64,000 nucleotides of DNA from an uncultured Chloroflexia bacterium (lineage in GTDB: Bacteria; Chloroflexota; Limnocylindria; QHBO01). A program made the position numbers and the translations under genes. Of the stretch, positions 2,175 to 61,568 are shown in pieces. The notes under the pieces are model-generated. The model saw only the letters and a list, made by a program, of their open reading frames with translations. It was not told where the DNA came from and ran no database searches. The first letter of the stretch is position 1. Every line of letters begins with the position of its first letter. Where the stretch lies: the NCBI GenBank assembly GCA_963840145.1, contig CAWIXR010000005.1:94094-158093 (forward strand), read 5' to 3'.

Positions 2175-3194
2175 GTGCCCGCGGACGAGATCGGCCGCTC
2201 GCGTCAGAATGCGGTGGTGACCTCTCCTGCCCGGCGGCCGCCGTCGACGGTCGCCGTCGTCGCCGCGCTCCTCACCGTCTACATCCTGTGGGGCTCGACC
2301 TACCTCGGCATCGCGGTGATGATCGAGACGATGCCGCCGCTGCTGGCGGCAGGCGCACGGTACGGCTCGGCCGGGCTGATCATGCTCGCGGTGCTGGTCG
2401 CCCACGCCCGACTGCGGCCGGGGGCATCCCTGGAGCGGCCGACCGCGATCCAGTGGCGCACCGCGGCGATTGTCGGGACGCTCTTGCTGCTCGGTGGCAA
2501 CGGCGGGGTCGTCCTCGGCGAGCTCTTCATCCCGACCGGCGTCGCCGCGGTCCTCGTCGCCACCGTGCCGATCTGGCTGGCGGTGTTCGACGCGGCCATC
2601 ACCCGCCGGCGGCCGGGTGGCCTCGTCATCGGCGGGCTCGTGGCCGGCATCGCCGGCGTCGCGGTGCTGCTCGTGCCCTTCGAGGGCTTCGGCAAGCTCG
2701 ACCCGCTCGGCATCGCGCTCGTGCTCGGCGGCGCGATCGCGTGGTCGCTCGGCTCGCTGTACGCCCGCTACAACCCGCTGCCGCGATCGGCACTGCTCGG
2801 CACCGGCATGGAGATGCTGCTCGGCGGCCTCGCGCTGATCGTCGGCGGCGTGCTGCTCGGCGAGGTCGGACGGACCGATGTCGCCGAGTTCTCGTCGGCA
2901 TCGGTCATCGCCTTCTTCTACCTCGTCGTCTTCGGCTCGATCGTGGCGTTCACCGCCTACACCTGGCTCCTCGCCAACGTGTCCGTCTCGACGGTGGCGA
3001 CGTACGCCTACGTCAACCCGATCGTGGCCGTGGCCCTCGGCGCCATCTTCTACGCGGAGCCGATCACGCCGCGCACCGTCATCGCGGCGGTCCTGATCAT
3101 CGGCGCGGTGGTGGCGATGGTCTCCGGACGGCCGCGCGAGACCGAGGAGCCGCGGCGGATCGCCGAGGGCGCAATCGAGCCCGACCGGGCCTGA
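2175..3194 (+). CDS. EamA/DMT family transporter
   Basis: 10-TM hydrophobic profile with duplicated EamA halves. The true start may be an internal GTG. Confidence 0.7.
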
Positions 3195-3228
3195 CCGATG
3201 GCACCGATCCTGCGCGTCCGCGCAGACC

Positions 3229-3514
3229 GATGACGGAGCCGATCGTCTCCTGCAGCCCCACCGAGTCCGGCTGGCATTGCACGGTGACGCTCGGGTCCGA
3301 TCCTGGCGCGACCGTCCACGAGGTGAGCGTCGACCGCGAGGTCCTCGACGACCTCGCGCCGGGCGCCACGCCCGAGGAGCTCGTCCGCGTGTCGTTCGCG
3401 TTCCTGCTGGAGCGCGAGCCGCGCGAGTCGATCATGCGGCAGTTCGAGCTCCCGATCATCGGCCGCTTCTTCGGCGACTACCGCGACGAGATGCTCCGCC
3501 GCATGCTCCCCTAG
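3229..3514 (+). CDS. hypothetical small protein
   Basis: ATG-initiated 95-aa ORF with coding-like composition. No recognisable domain. Confidence 0.4.
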
Positions 3515-3996
3515 GCCGGCGGCCGCGGGTGCATCGCCCGCGACCCGGCGACCCGCACCCGGTCGAAGCCCGACGGGAAGACGACGAGGTTCCAGGCATC
3601 GCCGAGCGCCGCGGACGGCACGATCAGCCCGTCGGCGCCCAGCTCCCGGGCCTTCCCCGACAGGCCCTGGGCCCGCGACCGCGCCCCGGTCAGCTGCCCA
3701 TCGGTGATTCCGAGCTGCTCGGCCAGCCCGGGACGCCGGAGATCGACGACGGCGAGGCCGTCGACCTCGATCCGCCACAGGCGACGGCGCTCGTCGGCCG
3801 GATCGATCGCCCCGCGCGTCGCCGTCTGCCACTCGGCCCAGACCGTCGCCGGCTCGAGCGACGCGTAGAGCGGCCACGGTTCGCCGGGCCGGTGGTAGCG
3901 CCCCTCGGTCGGCGCCGGCCGGTCTGGCGGCGTGGCCGGGATGTCGACGCCGGTCTGGCGGTGCGCCCGTCCGCTGAAGCGGCTGATCGGGTTCAG
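3511..3996 (-). CDS. RES-domain toxin (MbcT/ParT-like NAD+-targeting toxin) with a non-canonical start
   Basis: My minus-strand translation reads ...ISRFSGRAHRQTG...GRYHRPGEPWPLYASLEPATVWAEW...LIVPSAALGDAWNLVVFP..., matching the RES conserved R/Y/E/S segments. The stop overlaps the plus-strand gene at 3511. The first ~120 codons contain no ATG/GTG/TTG. A CTG at 3994-3996 forms a CTGA overlap with the antitoxin stop. Confidence 0.65.
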   Translation of the reverse strand: MNPISRFSGRAHRQTGVDIPATPPDRPAPTEGRYHRPGEPWPLYASLEPATVWAEWQTATRGAIDPADERRRLWRIEVDGLAVVDLRRPGLAEQLGITDGQLTGARSRAQGLSGKARELGADGLIVPSAALGDAWNLVVFPSGFDRVRVAGSRAMHPRPPA

Positions 3997-4701: not shown

Positions 4702-5002
4702 TGCCGAGCAGCCCGCGGCGTCGGGCCAGTCCGCCATCGGCTTCGGCTCCGGGATCAGCGACGATCACCGGGACGGCATCCGCTGGGTCGACTACACGAA
4801 CATCAGCTGGAACCCGGTCTTCTGCAAGCGCTGCGACATCTGCGTCGAGATCTGCCCGAAGGCGACGCTCGTCCTGCGCAACGATGCGATCATCGAGGAG
4901 GAGAACTGCATCCTCTGCGGCCTCTGTGAGCGCTACTGCCCGGACCTGGCCATCGAGATGATCCCGGAGGCGGTCACCGCCCACGCCGCAAAGGAGAAGT
5001 GA
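4697..5002 (+). CDS. 4Fe-4S dicluster ferredoxin, delta subunit of 2-oxoacid:ferredoxin oxidoreductase
   Basis: Two CxxCxxCxxxCP motifs. It lies immediately upstream of the OFOR alpha/beta/gamma genes. Confidence 0.8.
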   Translation: MTAEQPAASGQSAIGFGSGISDDHRDGIRWVDYTNISWNPVFCKRCDICVEICPKATLVLRNDAIIEEENCILCGLCERYCPDLAIEMIPEAVTAHAAKEK

Positions 5003-5439
5003 GCCGGCGCCTGATCGGCTACCCGACCGGCTGGACGCTGGCCGTTTTCGACGAGGCCGATGCGGCCGAGGCCGCCGGGGCCGAGCTCGCCGCATCCGGC
5101 ATCGCTGCCGACGACGTGATTCTGCTGGCGGGATCGGACGCCACCGAGCGGATGAGCCGGCTCGGTGCCTCGTCCGGCGTCAGCGCGCGGATGCGGCGCG
5201 CGATGCAGTTCATGACGATGGACCAGCTGCCCGACCTCCACGTCTACGAGCTTGCCCTGGAGGGCGGCCGCCCGGTGCTGGGCATCCGGATCGGCGACGG
5301 CGACCGGCGGCGCGCCGCCACCGAGGTGATCCGCCGCCACGGCGGGCACTTCGTGAACCGATTCGGCGCGTGGGCGACCGAGGAGATATCCCCGTGGCGT
5401 GGCGAGATGCCCAGGCTGCCGCAGCACATGCAGCGCTGA
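4999..5439 (+). CDS. hypothetical protein, YflT/general-stress-protein-like
   Basis: 146 aa. ATGA overlap with the ferredoxin stop. Weak resemblance to the YflT family. It is inserted between the OFOR delta and alpha genes. Confidence 0.45.
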   Translation: MSRRLIGYPTGWTLAVFDEADAAEAAGAELAASGIAADDVILLAGSDATERMSRLGASSGVSARMRRAMQFMTMDQLPDLHVYELALEGGRPVLGIRIGDGDRRRAATEVIRRHGGHFVNRFGAWATEEISPWRGEMPRLPQHMQR

Positions 5440-5462: not shown

Positions 5463-6599
5463 ATGACCCGGAAGCTGACGCAGGGCAACGAGGCGGTCTT
5501 TCGCGGTGCGCTGGCCGCCGGCGCGAGCTACTACGCCGGCTACCCGATCAGCCCGTCCACCGAGATCCTCAACATCGCCTCGGGCCACGCTGCCGAGCAC
5601 CCCGAGTTCCGATTCCTCCAGGCGGAGGACGAGATCGCGTCGGCCAACGCCGTCATCGGCGCCTCGTTGGCGGGCGCGAAGTCGTTCACCGCGACCTCCG
5701 GCCCGGGCTTCAGCCTCATGCAGGAGGCGGTCGGCTACGCCCAGAAGGTCGGCGTGCCCTCGGTCTTCGTCAATGTCATGCGCGTCGGCCCGGCGACCGG
5801 GATGCCGACGATGCCCGGCCAGGGCGACATCATGCAGGTCAAGTGGGGCAGCACCGGCGACTACACCCCGCTCGCGTTCTACCCCAACGGCGTGGAAGAA
5901 GCGTTCCGCGTCACCGTCGACGCCTTCAACGCCGCCGAGGAGTCCCGCTCGCCGGTCGTCGTCCTGTCCGACACGTTCGTCGCGCACCTCAACGAGGTCG
6001 TCGACCTCGACGAGATCGCCGGCTCCGTCTCGGTCATCGACCGTTCGATGCCACCGCTCGGCGACTTCATCGATACGCCGCGCTTCTTCGCCGGCGTGCT
6101 GATGTACGAGCACGGGCCGAACGCGGGCGAGCCGGCCACGGCCGACGCGGACGAGTACCTGCGCCAGTTCTACGAGGCCAAGCACCGCCATCTCGAGGTC
6201 GCCGCGCGCTACGCGCAGTTCGAGCACGGATGGAACGTCGAGGCCGATGTCCTGGTCGTCTGCTACGGGATCGTCTCGCGTGTCGCGGCGCCGCTGCGCG
6301 ACGAGTTCGCCCTCTTCCGGCCGATCCGAATCTTCCCGATGCTCTCGGCCGAGCTGGCCGGCATTGCCGATCGGTACCGCGAGGTGGTCGTGGTGGAGGC
6401 GAACGACGGCCAGTACGCGGACCTCGTGGAGCTTGCGCTGCATCGGCCGGTCAAGCGCGTGCCGCTGCTCGGCGGCCGCATCTCGCTCGAGGCCGTGCGC
6501 GAGGGGATCGACCGCGTGCTGTCGGGTGGGCCATCGGAGCCTCCGATTCCGCCGCAGCCGGCGGAGCCCGGCCCGCGGGCGCCGCTGGGGGTGGGCTGA
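5463..6599 (+). CDS. 2-oxoacid:ferredoxin oxidoreductase alpha subunit (KorA/PorA-like)
   Basis: N-terminal GYPISPSTEI and a pyruvate-flavodoxin/ferredoxin oxidoreductase core. Confidence 0.85.
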   Translation: MTRKLTQGNEAVFRGALAAGASYYAGYPISPSTEILNIASGHAAEHPEFRFLQAEDEIASANAVIGASLAGAKSFTATSGPGFSLMQEAVGYAQKVGVPSVFVNVMRVGPATGMPTMPGQGDIMQVKWGSTGDYTPLAFYPNGVEEAFRVTVDAFNAAEESRSPVVVLSDTFVAHLNEVVDLDEIAGSVSVIDRSMPPLGDFIDTPRFFAGVLMYEHGPNAGEPATADADEYLRQFYEAKHRHLEVAARYAQFEHGWNVEADVLVVCYGIVSRVAAPLRDEFALFRPIRIFPMLSAELAGIADRYREVVVVEANDGQYADLVELALHRPVKRVPLLGGRISLEAVREGIDRVLSGGPSEPPIPPQPAEPGPRAPLGVG

Positions 6600-53440: not shown

Positions 53441-53460
53441 TGATAACAAAAGTGTTATCA
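53441..53460. promoter_or_regulatory. perfect inverted repeat TGATAAC-N6-GTTATCA immediately upstream of the XRE gene
   Basis: Ends 8 nt before the ATG at 53469. AT-rich island. A second palindrome GGCCGAT-CT-ATCGGCC lies at 53413-53428. Confidence 0.55.
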
Positions 53461-53468
53461 TCCGACCG

Positions 53469-53798
53469 ATGAATGCCGCACGAGCCCTTCGATACGCCCG
53501 CCGACACGCCGGCCTGACCCAGCGAGCCCTGGCCGCCAGGGCCGGCGTGCCCCAGCCGGCGATTGCTCGCATCGAGGCGGGTGCCGTTTCGCCACGGGTG
53601 GACACGCTCTCGCACTTGATCGCCGCGACCGGGAGCACGCTCGAGCTGGCTCCGAGGGTCGGCGCTGGCGTCGACCGCACGATGCTCGCGGCCACCCTGG
53701 CGATGACGCCCGAGGAACGCATCGAGGCCGCCGGCCGAGCCGGGACGAGCCTCGCGGCCTTCCGGGACGAGGTCCGACGTGGCCGGACGGGCGCCTGA
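53469..53798 (+). CDS. XRE-family HTH transcriptional regulator (putative antitoxin of an NTase module)
   Basis: GLTQRALAARAGVPQPAIARIE HTH. The alternative start at 53400 would place the operator inside the CDS. Confidence 0.7.
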   Translation: MNAARALRYARRHAGLTQRALAARAGVPQPAIARIEAGAVSPRVDTLSHLIAATGSTLELAPRVGAGVDRTMLAATLAMTPEERIEAAGRAGTSLAAFRDEVRRGRTGA

Positions 53799-54279
53799 CT
53801 TCCGGCCCGCGGAGGTCATCGGCCTCCTCGGCCGTCATGAGGTCCGCTACGTCCTGATCGGCGGCCTCGCCGCGATCACGCATGGGGCCGGCGTCGTCAC
53901 GCAGGACGTCGACGTCTGCCACGCACGCGATCCTGAGAATCTGGAGCGCCTGGCCGATGCGCTGCGCGAGGTCCACGCCGACCTCCGCGGTGCCGAGCCG
54001 GGCCTGCCGTTTCGGCTCGACGCCAAGGCGCTGGAGCGCGGGGACTCGTTCACCTTCACGACGGACGTCGGCTGGGTCGACATCCTGGGCACGCCCTCCG
54101 GCGGCGTGGGCTACGAAGAGCTGGCTCGGACGGCCGATGCGTACACGCTCTTCGGTCACCGAGTCCTGGTCGCATCGCTCGAGGACCTCATTCGGATGAA
54201 GCGAGCGGCCGGTCGCCCCAAGGACCTGCTCGCGGTGGAGGAGCTTGGCGCCCTCCGGGACGAGATCGATCGGTCCTAG
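53779..54279 (+). CDS. minimal nucleotidyltransferase (Pol-beta superfamily, AbiEii/MNT-like)
   Basis: LIGGLAAITHGAGVVTQDVDV (G[GS]...DxD) and C-terminal LEDLIRMKRAAGRPKDLLAV. 20-nt overlap with the XRE gene. Confidence 0.6.
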   Translation: MAGRAPDFRPAEVIGLLGRHEVRYVLIGGLAAITHGAGVVTQDVDVCHARDPENLERLADALREVHADLRGAEPGLPFRLDAKALERGDSFTFTTDVGWVDILGTPSGGVGYEELARTADAYTLFGHRVLVASLEDLIRMKRAAGRPKDLLAVEELGALRDEIDRS

Positions 54280-55107: not shown

Positions 55108-55734
55108 CTAGCGCCGCAGGCCTCCAACCACCAGGCCGATGACGTGGGCCGCCACCTGGCGCGCGCGCTCGCGCTGGTCTGCGCGGATCCCGATCGCGCC
55201 CTCCAGGATCAGCGACGCCAGGCCATGGACCGATGACCAGGCCGTGACGGCGGCGCCGCCCGCATCGGTCCCGTCGCGCAGCAGCCCCTGGTCGGCGGCG
55301 TCCTGGACGACGGCCATCAGCGTGGCGAAGGCGCCGCCACCGGCGAGGTCGGCCTCGGTTGGCGCATCCGTGTCGGTCGATCTGCTCAGCTCGGTCCTGA
55401 ACATCAGCCGATACCGCTGCGGGTGGTCCAGCGCGAAGTCGACGTAGGCGAGGCCCATCGCCTCGAGGCGGTCGAACGGATCGTCGCCGGAGACCAATGC
55501 CGCATCGGCCAAAGCCGAGCCGAGCAGCTCGAAGCTCTCGGCCACGATCCCGCGGACCAGCGCGCCCCGATCGGCGAAGTGGTGGTAGGGGGCGGCGTGG
55601 CTCACGCCGGCGCGGCGCGCCACCTCGCGCAGGGTGAAGCCGTCCGGACCGCGCTCGGAGAGGAGCGCAAGGCCCGAGTCCAGCAGCGCCCGTCGCAGGT
55701 TGCCGTGGTGGTAGCTCGACCGCTTCGCCGTCAT
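55108..55734 (-). CDS. TetR/AcrR family transcriptional regulator
   Basis: FTLREVARRAGVSHAAPYHHF HTH. Divergent from the SDR gene. Confidence 0.85.
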   Translation of the reverse strand: MTAKRSSYHHGNLRRALLDSGLALLSERGPDGFTLREVARRAGVSHAAPYHHFADRGALVRGIVAESFELLGSALADAALVSGDDPFDRLEAMGLAYVDFALDHPQRYRLMFRTELSRSTDTDAPTEADLAGGGAFATLMAVVQDAADQGLLRDGTDAGGAAVTAWSSVHGLASLILEGAIGIRADQRERARQVAAHVIGLVVGGLRR

Positions 55735-55811
55735 GAACTTGACACCGTCTAGATACGGTCCTAGGATCGCTATCTTACCACTGACTAGATTAGCGCGGAA
55801 GGACGAAACCA

Positions 55812-56714
55812 ATGAGCACGGACCAGGAGCTGCACGTCGTCATCGGTGGCACCGGCGCCATCGGCGGAGCGGTCGTCGAGGAGCTATCGCGGCGCGGACG
55901 CCGCGTCCGCGCAATCGGCCGCAAGGACGGCGACCTCATGGACAGCCGGCAGGCGATCGACGCCGTCGCGGGCGCATCGGTCGTGTACGCCTGTGCCGCT
56001 CCGGAGTACACGCGCTGGGTTGAGGAGTTTCCGACGCTCCAGGCGAACGTCGCGGACGCCGCGGAGGCGGCGGGGGCGAGGCTCGTCGTCGTCGAGAACC
56101 TGTACATGTACGGGCCGACGGATGGACCCATGACCGAGTCGACGCCGATGGCGGCGACCGGCAAGAAGGGTGGCCTGCGAGCCCGGCTCAGCAACGAGCT
56201 CTTAGAGCGGCATGCCGGCGGCAGGCTGCGCGTCGCGATCGGCCGAGCGTCCGACTATTACGGCCCGCGCGCCGTCAATTCGGCGGTCGGGGAGCAGTTC
56301 TTCGGCGCCGTGGCGCGCGGCAAGGCGCCCCGCTGGATGGGCCGTCTGGACCAGCCGCACGCGCTCTCGTTCCTTCCCGACATCGCCGCCGGGCTCGTGA
56401 CCCTCGGCGAGCATCCTGAGGGCGACGGCCAGGCCTGGCACCTGCCTGTCAGCCCTGCGCTGAGCGGCGCGGAGTGGTCCGAGCGGACTGCGGCGATCGT
56501 CGGGCGCCCGGTGCGGCCGTCGCGGGTGACGCGGCCGATGCTCCTCGGCCTCGGTCTATTCATGCCGCTGCTGCGGGAGCTGCGCGAGACGCTGTACCAG
56601 TGGGAGCGTCCATGGGTCGTCGACGACTCGAAATTCCGCACCGCGTTCGACGTCGGCGCCACGGACGCCGACGAGGCGATCCGCCGGTCACTCGATTGGT
56701 TCGATCGGCGCTGA
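55812..56714 (+). CDS. NAD(P)-dependent epimerase/dehydratase (atypical SDR/NmrA-like) family protein
   Basis: VIGGTGAIG Rossmann motif. Confidence 0.75.
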   Translation: MSTDQELHVVIGGTGAIGGAVVEELSRRGRRVRAIGRKDGDLMDSRQAIDAVAGASVVYACAAPEYTRWVEEFPTLQANVADAAEAAGARLVVVENLYMYGPTDGPMTESTPMAATGKKGGLRARLSNELLERHAGGRLRVAIGRASDYYGPRAVNSAVGEQFFGAVARGKAPRWMGRLDQPHALSFLPDIAAGLVTLGEHPEGDGQAWHLPVSPALSGAEWSERTAAIVGRPVRPSRVTRPMLLGLGLFMPLLRELRETLYQWERPWVVDDSKFRTAFDVGATDADEAIRRSLDWFDRR

Positions 56715-56760
56715 CGCGCTAGCCTTTGGGTCCACGTCAACGCACTCACAGGAGGGGAAT

Positions 56761-57603
56761 GTGTCCGTGACAGCACGCGCCGGGCGACGCGGGATCGTCG
56801 CCACCATCACCGCGCTCGTCCTGGTCCTCACCGCGCTCGTCCAATCGGTTGCGGCCGCGCCGAAGCCCGAGCCGCGCATCATCGGGGGCGAGCCCGCCGA
56901 CTTCGGGGAGTACCCGTTCATGGTCGCGCTCCTCTTCGAGCCAACGGCCGGCAACGACTTCCAGAAGCAGTTCTGCGGCGGATCGCTGATCGCCTCGCGC
57001 TGGGTCCTGACCGCGGCGCATTGTGCCGACTTCCTGGCAGGGCCGGAGGAGGTGGCCGTGGCCGTCAGCCGCACTCACCTCAACAGCACCGAGGGCCAGC
57101 GGATCGCGGTCCGATCGATCCACATCCATCCCGATTACGACCCGAACCAGATCTCTCCCGACGTCGCGCTGCTCGAGCTTGCCAGGCCGGTGAGGGGCAT
57201 CACGCCCATTCGGCTGGCCGGACCGAGCGACAACGGCTTCGAGATCGCCGGGACCCAGCTGACCGTCATCGGCTGGGGCAACACCTCGAAGACCGGACAG
57301 GCGAGCTTCCCGAACGAGCTTCGCGAGGTCGTCGTGCCGGTGGTGGCCGACGCGACGTGCGACACGGCGTATCACGGCTTCGTGACGGTCGAGACGCAGC
57401 TATGCGCGGGCCAGAAGGGGGTCGACAGCTGCGGTGGCGACAGCGGCGGGCCGCTGTTCGCGACCACGTCGAGCGGCACTCGGATCCAGGTAGGGATCGT
57501 GTCCTACGGCATCGGGTGCGCCAAGCAGCGCTACCCCGGCGTGTACACCGAGGTCAACAGCCCGACGGTTCGCAGCTTCATCGCCGAGGTCGCCGGGGTC
57601 TAG
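56761..57603 (+). CDS. secreted trypsin-like serine protease (S1 family)
   Basis: Signal peptide, IIGG mature N-terminus, TAAHC (His), DVALL (Asp), GDSGGP (Ser). Confidence 0.85.
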   Translation: MSVTARAGRRGIVATITALVLVLTALVQSVAAAPKPEPRIIGGEPADFGEYPFMVALLFEPTAGNDFQKQFCGGSLIASRWVLTAAHCADFLAGPEEVAVAVSRTHLNSTEGQRIAVRSIHIHPDYDPNQISPDVALLELARPVRGITPIRLAGPSDNGFEIAGTQLTVIGWGNTSKTGQASFPNELREVVVPVVADATCDTAYHGFVTVETQLCAGQKGVDSCGGDSGGPLFATTSSGTRIQVGIVSYGIGCAKQRYPGVYTEVNSPTVRSFIAEVAGV

Positions 57604-57627
57604 GCAAGCCCAGACCGATCGACCTCG

Positions 57628-57735
57628 ATGCGACCGACAGTCGCCCGGGCGCTGCCGCCGCTCGCCATCGCGTTCGCGCTGGTGGCGTGCGCTGGCGGCG
57701 CATCGGTCCCGTCGCCGGAGGTCCCCGACCGATGA
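57628..57735 (+). pseudogene. lipoprotein signal-peptide remnant (truncated after 35 codons)
   Basis: MRPTVARALPPLAIAFALVACAGG..., then a stop 14 codons after the lipobox. Confidence 0.3.
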
Positions 57736-57964
57736 CCTAGGCGCCCCGTTCTTGTTCCAGCGCGCCGTCGTGCTCGTGCCTCCGGTCGATCTCTGGTATG
57801 TCGACTGGTACTCCGACTTCGGCGACGAGGGCGGAGATCGCCAGGGCTTCCTCCCGTTCGTCCGCTCGTTCATTCCGGCTCCCGACTTCGGAGACGAGGA
57901 GGGAGCCTTACGATGCGGCTGCGGCCCAATCCGTTTCGGAGGCGTGGACGAAACTGTCAGGGAT

Positions 57965-57982
57965 TATATCGATAGTGATATA
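57965..57982. promoter_or_regulatory. 18-bp element TATATCGATAGTGATATA (upstream copy), candidate operator
   Basis: Ends 8 nt before the ATG at 57991. Contains the palindrome TATCGATA. Identical copy at 58729-58746. Confidence 0.45.
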
Positions 57983-57990
57983 TTCGGTGA

Positions 57991-58689
57991 ATGGACGCGA
58001 CGGCGATCGGACCGACGGTCAGGTGGGCGCGCAAACGCGCCGGTATGACCCAGCACGAGCTCGCGCAGGCGACGGGCCTGCCCCAGCCGAGCATCGCGCG
58101 AATCGAGAGCGGAGCGGTGGTCCCGCGGACGGCGACGCTGATCACCATCCTGCACGCCGCCGGGCACCGGCTCGCCATTGAACCGATCGGTTCAGTGGTG
58201 GATCGCGAGGCCATCCGCAGACAGTTGGCCCTGACTGTGCCGCGACGCACGCAACTTGCACTCGGGCGCGCTGCGAAGGACCCGATGACCAGTCCCGTTC
58301 GGATCCTGCGTCGGCTGCGCCGCTTCAGCGTGCCGTTCGTGCTGGTCGGCGACCTGGCGGAAGTCGCGCACGGCGCGCTCGGGAAGGTCGGCGGTCTCAT
58401 CGAGGTCTGCGTCGCGACGACTGATATCGCCCGCGAGCGGCTCGAGCTCGCCAGGAAAGACCTTGGCGAGTCAGCCGATCCCAGCCGCCTGCACGTCCTG
58501 ACCAGCACCGTCGCCGGCGACGACTATGACGTGCTCGTTCGCAATGCCGTCCGCTTGCGGGTGGACGCGGGATTGCTCGTACCGGTCGCAGCCGTCCAGG
58601 ACCTGATCCGCGTCCGACGTGCGCGCCGCGCACCCGACGACGAGGCGGCAGCGGCTACCCTCGCCGCCATCCTCGACGAGTCGGCCTAG
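57991..58689 (+). CDS. fused XRE-HTH / nucleotidyltransferase-like protein (paralogue of the 53469-54279 module, NTase motif degenerate)
   Basis: N-terminal GMTQHELAQATGLPQPSIARIE. C-terminal FVLVGDLAEVAHGA...QDLIRVRRARRAPDD is collinear with the split NTase but lacks the DxD pair. Confidence 0.6.
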   Translation: MDATAIGPTVRWARKRAGMTQHELAQATGLPQPSIARIESGAVVPRTATLITILHAAGHRLAIEPIGSVVDREAIRRQLALTVPRRTQLALGRAAKDPMTSPVRILRRLRRFSVPFVLVGDLAEVAHGALGKVGGLIEVCVATTDIARERLELARKDLGESADPSRLHVLTSTVAGDDYDVLVRNAVRLRVDAGLLVPVAAVQDLIRVRRARRAPDDEAAAATLAAILDESA

Positions 58690-58728
58690 TCAGCTCGTTT
58701 CCTGGGCGTTGTTGCCCCTGTCGACGAA

Positions 58729-58746
58729 TATATCGATAGTGATATA
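58729..58746. repeat. 18-bp element TATATCGATAGTGATATA (downstream copy)
   Basis: Perfect direct repeat of 57965-57982. It lies between convergent gene ends. Confidence 0.45.
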
Positions 58747-58769
58747 AGCGCTGACAGAATGGAAAGCCC

Positions 58770-59633
58770 CTACGACTCCGTTGCGGGCTCCACCTCGTAC
58801 ACCCGCCGCGGCTCCGACAGTCCCTTCAACTCCTGGTCGCCGCGGTCGATGAACTCGATGGCCGAGCCCGCCAGCAGCTCGCGCGTCGCCCACGACGCGT
58901 AGACCGTGCCCGCGCCGGCAAGGTCGGCAATGCGAGCCGCGATGTGGACGCCGACGCCGCGGACGTTGCCGCCCTCCTGCTCGATCTCGCCGGTATGGAC
59001 GCCCGCCCGAACCTCGAGACCGATCTCCGATGTGACCCGGCTGATCTCAAGCGCTGCGCGGATCGCCCGCTCGGCGCCGTCGAAGAGGGCAACGAACCCG
59101 TCGCCGGTCGTCGACACCTCGCGGCCGCGGAACCGGTCGAGCAGGTCTCGCACCGCTCGATCGTGCCGCGCCAGCAGGTCGCGCCAGGCTCCGTCGCCCA
59201 GCTCGAGCGCCCGAGCCGTCGAGTTGACGATGTCGGTCACCAGGAGCGTGGTGACGATCCGATCGAAATCGCCGCCTTCCGCCTGGCCGAAGGCCACGCT
59301 CGGCTGCCACTCGAGATTCACGTACGGCTCGTCGCCCTCGATCCAGGAGTCGTGGCCGGCCGGGATCTCGTAGAACTGGCCCGCCTCGACCGCGAGCTCG
59401 GCGCCCTCGCGCGTCCGGACGCGCATCCGTCCGGAGAGGCAGACCCCGATGTGGTGGTACTCGCACAGCTCCGTGCGCGAGATCGGCTGGATCGACTCGC
59501 TCCAGCGCCATCCCGGCTGGAGGATCGAGCGACCGATGCGGATCTCGCCCAGGTCGTACGTCTCGAGGCGGCCGAACGGGACCTCGCGCACGCTGTCGGG
59601 CTCGCCGAAGGGCCGGCGCTGCAGCTTGACCAT
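58770..59633 (-). CDS. class III adenylate/guanylate cyclase with N-terminal cupin-like domain
   Basis: Cyclase homology domain (VTDIVNST...TGDGFVALF...GVHTGE). Confidence 0.75.
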
Positions 59634-59692
59634 GACATGCCCACGATAGACGGCCAGAGCGCTCAGGCGGCACCAGCCTTAGGATTCGACGC

Positions 59693-61568
<1,876 letters not shown>

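Follow-up and report, generated by a model that had tools for sequence, protein, structure and literature searches.

Whether perfect direct repeats that flank a single gene are the scars of its insertion or the binding sites of its product is the question raised by one locus in a GC-rich stretch of DNA, 64,000 nucleotides long, from an uncultured bacterium of the Limnocylindria in the Chloroflexota (contig CAWIXR010000005.1; the whole stretch is referred to here as the window). The 18-nucleotide sequence TATATCGATAGTGATATA occurs on the + strand exactly twice in the window, at 57965-57982 and 58729-58746, against a chance expectation of 0, and no further match was found in the 64 kb even when three mismatches were allowed. 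Between the two copies stands a gene for a 232-residue protein, here called the regulator, in which an XRE-type helix-turn-helix (HTH) N-terminus is joined to a domain resembling the nucleotidyltransferase (NTase) of a two-gene XRE-NTase module that lies nearby. An earlier note on this DNA, whose description of identical 18-mers on either side of the gene holds, proposed that the arrangement is either a single-gene cassette inserted by site-specific recombination or a duplicated operator. The second option fits the data. We put at roughly two in three the probability that the 18-mers are the cores of cognate operator copies of the XRE-type regulator encoded between them, the upstream copy (copy 1) serving also as its promoter; where a genome is GC-rich and an HTH gene is flanked by perfect AT-rich direct repeats, operators are a likelier explanation than insertion scars.

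The element and the start of the regulator gene

The features central to this reading are the following.

57949-57998, + strand: element copy 1 (50-nucleotide register), with its core at 57965-57982 and its left outer arm, CTGTCAGGG, at 57954-57962
57976-57984, + strand: predicted extended -10 box (TG at 57976-57977, TATATT at 57979-57984), followed by CGGTGA and the ATG at 57991
57991-58689, + strand: gene of the fused regulator, 232 amino acids, with the HTH at about residues 3-57, a helical linker at about 72-95 and an NTase-fold-like domain at about 100-232
58713-58762, + strand: element copy 2, with its core at 58729-58746 and outer arms CTGTCGACG and CGCTGACAG

A longer palindrome, about 50 bp in all, has the 18-mer as its core, CGAAACTGTCAGCGAA-TATATC-GnTAGT-GATATA-TCCGCTGACAGTTTCG, and degenerate sequence beyond the core lengthens the repeat to 59 nucleotides at 73% identity (57932-57990 versus 58696-58754). 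The inverted repeat CTGTCAG (57954-57960)/CTGACAG (58751-58757), previously noted outside the 18-mers, is present but does not mark the ends of a cassette; its halves are outer arms of the two elements, each of which is itself palindromic. The right outer arm of copy 1 is partly replaced by a TGA and the ATG start codon of the regulator, while copy 2, which occupies the 80 nucleotides that separate the stop codon of the regulator gene from that of a convergent cyclase gene, carries an ATGGA remnant at 58759. Both copies were recognized by an nhmmer profile built from 28 copies of the element, with E-values of 1.3e-13 (copy 1) and 4.5e-12 (copy 2). Whereas the cores of the two copies are identical at 18 of 18 positions, the flanks of the 59-nucleotide repeat agree at 25 of 41, and by our own arithmetic the chance of such core identity at the flank rate is 0.61^18, or ~1e-4. 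Thus, the core appears to have been maintained as a binding site and is not the product of a recent duplication. Homology between the two copies does not reach into coding sequence in the window, as it does in two related loci, L013 and L007 (L-numbers denote related loci from metagenome-assembled genomes and metagenomes).

The position of copy 1 relative to the gene is fixed. In all 19 orthologous loci examined, which derive from uncultured Limnocylindria/Chloroflexota, one copy of the element ends exactly 8 nucleotides before the ATG or GTG of the regulator, an in-frame TGA directly precedes the start and a Shine-Dalgarno sequence is lacking. This 8-nucleotide spacing is retained in distant orthologues in which the arms themselves vary (TATGGC-N6-GCTATA in L012 and TATGAT-N6-GATATA in L010). 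Little or no variation is seen in the sequence TAGTGATATA among 44 aligned copies; with two further bases it makes up TGnTATAnn, the predicted extended -10 box. Because the -10 hexamer ends 6 nucleotides before the start codon, the geometry is that of a leaderless mRNA, and RNA polymerase is predicted to begin at or next to the start codon of the regulator. Translation starts at this codon, since residues 1-18 are conserved as protein. A promoter scan returned only a minus-strand match at copy 1, the + strand box having been missed because the scan requires a -35 box. A reading of the left arm as an extracytoplasmic function (ECF) sigma-like GAAAC-N15-CGTT promoter was abandoned, as CGAAAC is confined to one subclade.

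The palindromic, operator-like TATATC-N6-GATATA overlaps the TGnTATATT of the gene's own predicted promoter, an overlap kept in 19 of 19 orthologues. A regulator dimer bound to this sequence would occlude the copy 1 promoter and impose negative autoregulation. Copy 2 would be a second binding site kept by selection. Standing where the gene ends, it may act as an auxiliary operator or a roadblock, perhaps looping to copy 1; alternatively, it could be a regulated promoter from which transcription would now run antisense into the cyclase gene.

Element copies and gene order in related loci

The profile search identified 45 copies of the element in 24 loci, and most orthologous loci carry extra copies in nearby intergenic regions. 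The 18-mer thus recurs as part of an operator-like element, an outcome that the earlier note had itself set against its reading. A second copy lies within about 80 nucleotides of the regulator stop codon in seven loci (the window, L006, L013, L086, L087, L008 and L011). The usual downstream neighbour of the regulator is typA/bipA, which adjoins it in 10 loci, and in L006, L013, L086 (the closest relative, at 73% identity) and L087 the downstream copy stands between the two genes, 68-88 nucleotides before the bipA start. The equivalent of copy 2 would, in these closest relatives, be the element between regulator and typA/bipA, the present lineage now having the cyclase gene in between. The element was not found by profile in five loci that contain only the split XRE-NTase module (L015-L019). 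A metagenome scan with the exact 18-mer gave 48 matches, and outer arms together with high GC content were seen only in L041, L043 and L071; of these three genuine matches two are orphan copies and the other precedes an orthologue with 58% identity, the remaining matches being chance occurrences in low-GC/AT-rich contigs. Similarly, 91 matches to TATATCNNTAGTGATATA in a viral scan were core-only and attributable to chance, none representing the full element.

These comparisons bear directly on the proposal that the regulator is a single-gene cassette acquired by site-specific recombination, with the 18-mers as duplicated att-like boundaries. In favour of this proposal, exactly one gene stands between perfect direct repeats, related genomes differ in the order of the genes about the locus, and the 11-6-11-like architecture of the core is suggestive of tyrosine-recombinase sites. 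The constant part of the locus in the 19 orthologous loci, however, is the regulator together with its upstream copy, whereas the neighbours vary (trypsin-like protease, methyltransferase, cyclase, globin and toxin-antitoxin pairs), and the upstream copy keeps its 8 nucleotides from the start codon whatever stands upstream. Four loci retain the gene but not the downstream copy: L001, and L003, L088 and L089, in which the regulator and bipA are 10-48 nucleotides apart with no element between them. The comparison with relatives that had been suggested as a check revealed no empty site among the loci examined; every related locus contains the gene, and it is the sequence on either side that differs. 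In a conspecific strain (L090, 99.6% nucleotide identity, reached through cluster member P0121) the layout is identical, and no recombinase domain is encoded among the called genes in 12.7 kb of L090 (~6 kb around the gene) or in L087-L089. The flanks outside the core have also diverged. Insertion of a cassette is very improbable.

A second alternative is that the element works as a hairpin, in RNA or in DNA, that resembles repetitive extragenic palindromic (REP) sequences and serves to terminate transcription with no U-tract or to stabilise mRNA; it would spread by duplication, and its link to the regulator would be secondary. Its 50-bp palindrome is near-perfect, and many copies are found 9-55 nucleotides past stop codons or between convergent genes. 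Duplication is evident in L007, where the promoter region is doubled as a 122-bp tandem copy of the element and first codons (4837-5008), and in L013, where orphan copies (13-120 and 5665-5760) are accompanied by 40-57 nucleotides of degenerate 5' coding sequence of the regulator. Orphan copies and copy 2 also fold strongly: copy 2 is the dominant predicted hairpin of its convergent gap (-15.5 to -17 kcal/mol, z about -4), and an orphan copy in L003 (7642) reaches -19.1 kcal/mol (z -6.8). A secondary role of copy 2 as a terminator or roadblock may thus be envisaged.

It should be emphasized, however, that the arms do not behave as a conserved RNA stem. Across 44 copies paired cells made up 74.6% of the 17-bp stem, compared with 74.3% in shuffled alignments, and the covariation score was 0.111 against 0.108 in shuffles. 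Arm mismatches are uncompensated, and this lack of covariation indicates that conservation acts on the sequence of the arms, which is what a protein-binding site would lead one to expect. Copies occupy divergent promoter gaps, where nothing terminates (L089, L003, L008 2769, L087 11870 and L005 4673), as well as convergent gaps (copy 2 of the window, L008 1527, L041 and L087 9692), and only a protein-binding DNA site would explain both. In parallel with the conserved core, the recognition-helix region of the regulator, PQPSIARIE, is nearly invariant across the family. Given the predicted leaderless start, transcripts of the regulator would in no locus include the upstream copy as a hairpin. 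The density of the element is low and clustered at the gene, with two copies in 64 kb and none in the loci that hold only the split module. A terminator scan found 0 terminator-like sites, the element hairpin having an AT-rich centre and no U-tract, and Rfam yielded no match in 57400-59900. No RAYT-like gene was seen, and the flanked gene encodes an HTH protein, not a Y1 transposase. Collectively, these points make a REP-like origin unlikely.

Gene order suggests a third possibility, that the elements mark hot spots of recombination or the boundaries of modules (pdif- or attC-like) around which single genes and toxin-antitoxin pairs near typA are shuffled, the regulator being a possible site-binder. 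Six elements in L087 (5049-11914) bracket the methyltransferase, the regulator, bipA, the split XRE-NTase toxin-antitoxin module and further genes, one of them preceding a 78-aa/PIN pair, and in L008 (754-3627) elements bracket an RHH-MazF-like pair (2890-3544) and adjoin an ADP-ribosylglycohydrolase gene. The cyclase gene is found on opposite sides of the regulator in different loci, since in L003 and L089 its orthologue lies upstream of the regulator, divergent from it and sharing a flipped element copy, as judged by tblastn synteny, whereas in the window it lies downstream. The breakpoints between L087, L001, L006 and the window coincide with element-bearing intergenic regions, and the methyltransferase block has moved between them. 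Set against this evidence are the absence of a linked recombinase among the called genes, the ability of 40-60 bp repeats to rearrange passively by homologous recombination, and the observation that neither the L001 insertions nor the insertion of the cyclase gene in the window is flanked by two elements; the fixed promoter geometry at the regulator would also be left unexplained. We regard module boundaries as a doubtful explanation. An equally speculative proposal is that the ~50-bp palindromes go beyond an operator function and, in the Limnocylindria, bound or recombine a small array of genes at typA that is flexible in content and whose members, single genes and toxin-antitoxin pairs (trypsin-like protease, methyltransferase, cyclase, XRE-NTase, RHH-MazF and PIN), may be gained, lost and moved, with the fused HTH-pseudoNTase as the element-binding factor; or that the dead NTase domain senses an active MenT-like toxin or nucleotides and so couples a tRNA-targeting toxin to transcription of typA, which encodes a ribosomal GTPase. 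This, too, is a long shot.

The hairpin, the module boundaries and the att-flanked cassette all rank below the operator reading. Nevertheless, several observations weigh against the latter. The bipA gene has a -10-like box of its own, TAGGAT-N7-ATG in its leader (59680-59695), and the conservation of this box suggests a leaderless bipA promoter that is independent of the element, so that the element would not be needed by bipA. Several copies, including copy 2, lie in convergent gaps, which need no promoter, and there form the main predicted hairpin, while the copy in L041 is more than 11 kb from any regulator gene. At ~50 bp the full palindrome far exceeds the length that a single HTH dimer requires, and an operator alone does not account for the outer arms. 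The coincidence of rearrangement breakpoints with element-bearing intergenic regions, described above, is a further difficulty. Finally, cores were not significantly more alike within than between genomes (p = 0.16), as concerted evolution or co-evolution with the regulator might have produced, and a claim of within-genome core co-variation was accordingly dropped.

Two further element copies stand before other genes. At 2650-2699 in L007 an element lies 8 nucleotides before the GTG of a trypsin-like protease, the orthologue of window 56761-57603; the L007 protease may be under the same control as the regulator, and the trypsin gene of the window has no element. In L011 (6860-7110) a second element precedes an HTH-only paralogue, which matches regulator residues 5-69 at 68% identity, its frame apparently shifted relative to the GTG 8 nucleotides after the core.

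The regions that adjoin the regulator and its two element copies in the window are listed below.

57604-57948, no strand assigned: gene-poor stretch upstream of copy 1, with an open reading frame (ORF) containing a lipobox and a 24-nucleotide direct repeat
58770-59633, - strand: gene with cupin and class III adenylate/guanylate cyclase domains (Pfam Cupin_2, Guanylate_cyc), between copy 2 and bipA
59680 to about 61465-61565, + strand: typA/bipA, 89-94% identical by tblastn to bipA of related loci

In all the loci compared the sequence TAnnAT-N7-ATG is kept before bipA (L013 5762-5779, L003 5725-5744 and L006 5756-5777). Homology of the window to L013, L001 and L087 resumes only at 59651-59677, in the bipA leader. 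A decayed third element copy considered between the cyclase gene and bipA (CGATAG...AGCGCT, 59644-59664) was rejected, AGCGCT being part of the conserved bipA leader and nhmmer finding no copy there. The bipA of the window is split by a frameshift near 61040-61070, the tblastn alignment of the L087 BipA changing reading frame at residues 449-459. Comparable breaks are present in the L001 and L089 bipA genes and in the L090 trypsin gene; indels from long-read assembly are a more probable cause than pseudogene formation.

The upstream gene-poor stretch does contain the lipoprotein remnant that the earlier note described, a 35-residue ORF with the lipobox LVAC and an early stop (57628-57735), which differs from the 99.6%-identical strain by three substitutions and one indel, consistent with a decaying remnant. 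The direct repeat, CCGACTTCGG(C/A)GACGAGG..GGAG, is present at 57813-57836 and 57882-57905 with 69-nucleotide spacing, and in one frame encodes a repeated DFGDE(G/E)G peptide. Of the 14 differences between the two strains in 57550-59750, 10 are concentrated in 57605-57887, and the stretch, which thus looks unconstrained, is probably remnant DNA. No homologue of the lipobox ORF or of the gene-poor stretch was found in related loci, tblastx output consisting of GC-rich noise.

The fused protein and its split paralogue

The N-terminus of the regulator matches Pfam HTH_3 (E-value 1.6e-10, 41.3 bits against a cutoff of 23) and HTH_31 (37.6 bits, cutoff 27), as well as the NCBIfam model for the Y4mF antitoxin. 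In BLASTP comparisons it is 47% identical to the XRE protein of the split module (E-value 1e-15), and the C-terminus is collinear with the split NTase at 31% identity (E-value 2e-10); the relationship proposed from inspection of the sequence is thus borne out by significant alignments. An AlphaFold model (predicted local distance difference test score 90) comprises the HTH, two linker helices and an alpha/beta domain. Foldseek aligned the N-terminus with HipB, ClgR, C.BclI and XRE antitoxins including HigA, and the C-terminus with Mycobacterium tuberculosis MenT1 (8an4/8an5; probability 1.0, E-value 6e-3, TM-score 0.35-0.43 over ~155 columns). The C-terminal domain has no match in Pfam, NCBIfam or PADLOC.

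The paralogue with which the regulator was compared is organized as follows.

53441-54279, + strand: split paralogous module, with an XRE gene (53469-53798) and an overlapping NTase gene (53779-54279)

This pair has the two-gene layout of an XRE antitoxin and NTase toxin, and the NTase, a putative toxin, retains intact T-x-D-x-D and K..RPKD motifs and is a borderline member of DUF6036 (24.9 bits, cutoff 23.6), a family for which a literature search returned no papers. The module has its own palindrome, TGATAAC-AAAAGT-GTTATCA, at 53441-53460, 8 nucleotides before the ATG at 53469, an arrangement that matches the one at the fused gene, and palindromes of this type are also present in L015, L018 and L087 (8762-8784). 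The half-sites of the split and fused operators share xATAxC, making cross-talk between the two systems conceivable; the earlier note conjectured that the fused protein could be a decoy for, or regulator of, its active paralogue. In the L013/L015 genome ~14 kb separate the split form from the fused one, whereas the distance is a few kb in L087, L088 and the window.

An alignment of seven split NTases with eight fused proteins reveals what distinguishes the two forms. The T-x-D-x-D motif has become x-x-[LIV]-[IV]-E in the fused family, DVD of the split enzyme aligning to LIE. The reported loss of the DxD motif is correct as far as the catalytic motifs are concerned, but the second carboxylate is kept, as Glu138, which is the sole motif II residue retained and is invariant in a 21-sequence alignment (A1); the L007 orthologue apparently lacks it. 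In addition, the fused family has a deletion of a 26-residue segment, has lost the third acidic motif, and has Arg, Asp or Glu in place of the Lys residues of motif IV, K..RPKD. The equivalents in MenT1, Asp41 (D41) and Lys137 (K137), are essential (PMC10435456), and the loss of these motifs indicates that the C-terminal domain of the fused protein is probably catalytically dead. It nonetheless appears from its conservation to be under purifying selection, with E124, G128, D204, R207 and R209 invariant in the 21 sequences. Thus, the description of the gene as a degenerate paralogue is apt for its NTase motifs, but the gene is not decaying, the family being conserved in >261 full-length relatives at 55-73% identity, those with names belonging to Candidatus Limnocylindria/Chloroflexota. 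Across window 55112-61556, compared with L006 and L087, the regulator is 73-75% identical in nucleotides (62-65% in protein) and the flanking TetR, NmrA, trypsin and bipA genes 82-91% (86-93% in protein), from which it follows that the regulator evolves faster than its neighbours.

The wider family provides a view of how this state might have arisen. Exact-sequence look-ups with the window protein and P0001 gave no match, and a profile search of 1.8 billion representatives recovered many fused HTH-NTase proteins. Among these wider relatives some have intact motifs (P0147, P0150, P0161 and P0175, with weak DUF6036, DUF2204 or AbiEii matches) and others are intermediate (P0140, P0146 and P0197). 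As fused relatives with intact motifs exist, fusion preceded inactivation, and the window protein represents one degenerate branch of a wider, uncharacterised family of fused HTH-NTase proteins. We propose that the regulator derives by gene fusion from a two-gene XRE-NTase (MenT/DUF6036-like) toxin-antitoxin module, and that its catalytically degenerate NTase domain presumably serves dimerisation or signal sensing. If this is correct, a toxin-antitoxin module has been domesticated into a one-polypeptide transcription factor that combines the HTH of the antitoxin with a later inactivated toxin domain, and the intact, intermediate and dead active sites within the fused family constitute a natural series for the change from toxin to regulatory domain. 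The cis element is easily recognised, conserved across an uncultured soil class and copied to genes around typA/bipA. To our knowledge there is no genetics for the Limnocylindria; the arrangement described here would give the class a regulon that can be tested, together with a promoter architecture predicted to be leaderless.

Comparison with known systems

Most likely, to judge from its sequence features, the locus is an ordinary case of an operator combined with a promoter, and its regulator, itself uncharacterised, stems from a toxin-antitoxin pair. Negative autoregulation by occlusion of their own promoter is the classic logic of XRE/HipB-type antitoxins, and hipBA has several operators of the form TATCC-N8-GGATA. 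Similar to these type II antitoxin autorepressors (HipB, HigA and Y4mF), whose structures and Y4mF model the regulator HTH matches, the system described here has a palindromic operator with TATC/GATA half-sites over its own promoter, and more than one operator copy. In contrast to the HipB type, the regulator has no separate downstream toxin gene, its toxin-like domain being fused and degenerate, and its predicted start is leaderless; its palindrome, at ~50 bp, has conserved outer arms, extra copies occur at neighbouring genes, and one stands downstream of the regulator. The repressor gene of phage lambda, cI, lies between the operators OL and OR, an arrangement that allows cooperative binding or looping, and the present gene likewise stands between two copies of its predicted operator. 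Unlike cI, however, it has no prophage context, its copies are in direct orientation, and the downstream copy faces no evident gene in the window.

The C-terminal domain places the regulator alongside NTase toxins of the MenT/AbiEii type (MenT1 Rv0078A; DUF6036, DUF2204 and AbiEii), to which it is homologous, MenT1 having the nearest solved fold. It differs from MenT in lacking the equivalents of D41 and K137, the 26-residue segment and the third acidic motif, and in going unrecognised by Pfam. With a toxin-like domain that has no catalytic motifs, the fused regulator does not correspond, judged by its sequence, to a toxin-antitoxin module with a separate active toxin. A parallel for its organization may be found among fused Xre proteins such as COG2856-Xre (ImmA/IrrE-like; Makarova et al. 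2009, PMC2701414), where the fused form has a regulatory function. As in that system, the Xre HTH and its partner domain are encountered both as separate genes and as one polypeptide; the partner domain of the regulator, however, has a putative NTase fold and is not a Zn protease, and in this branch of the family its active site has been lost.

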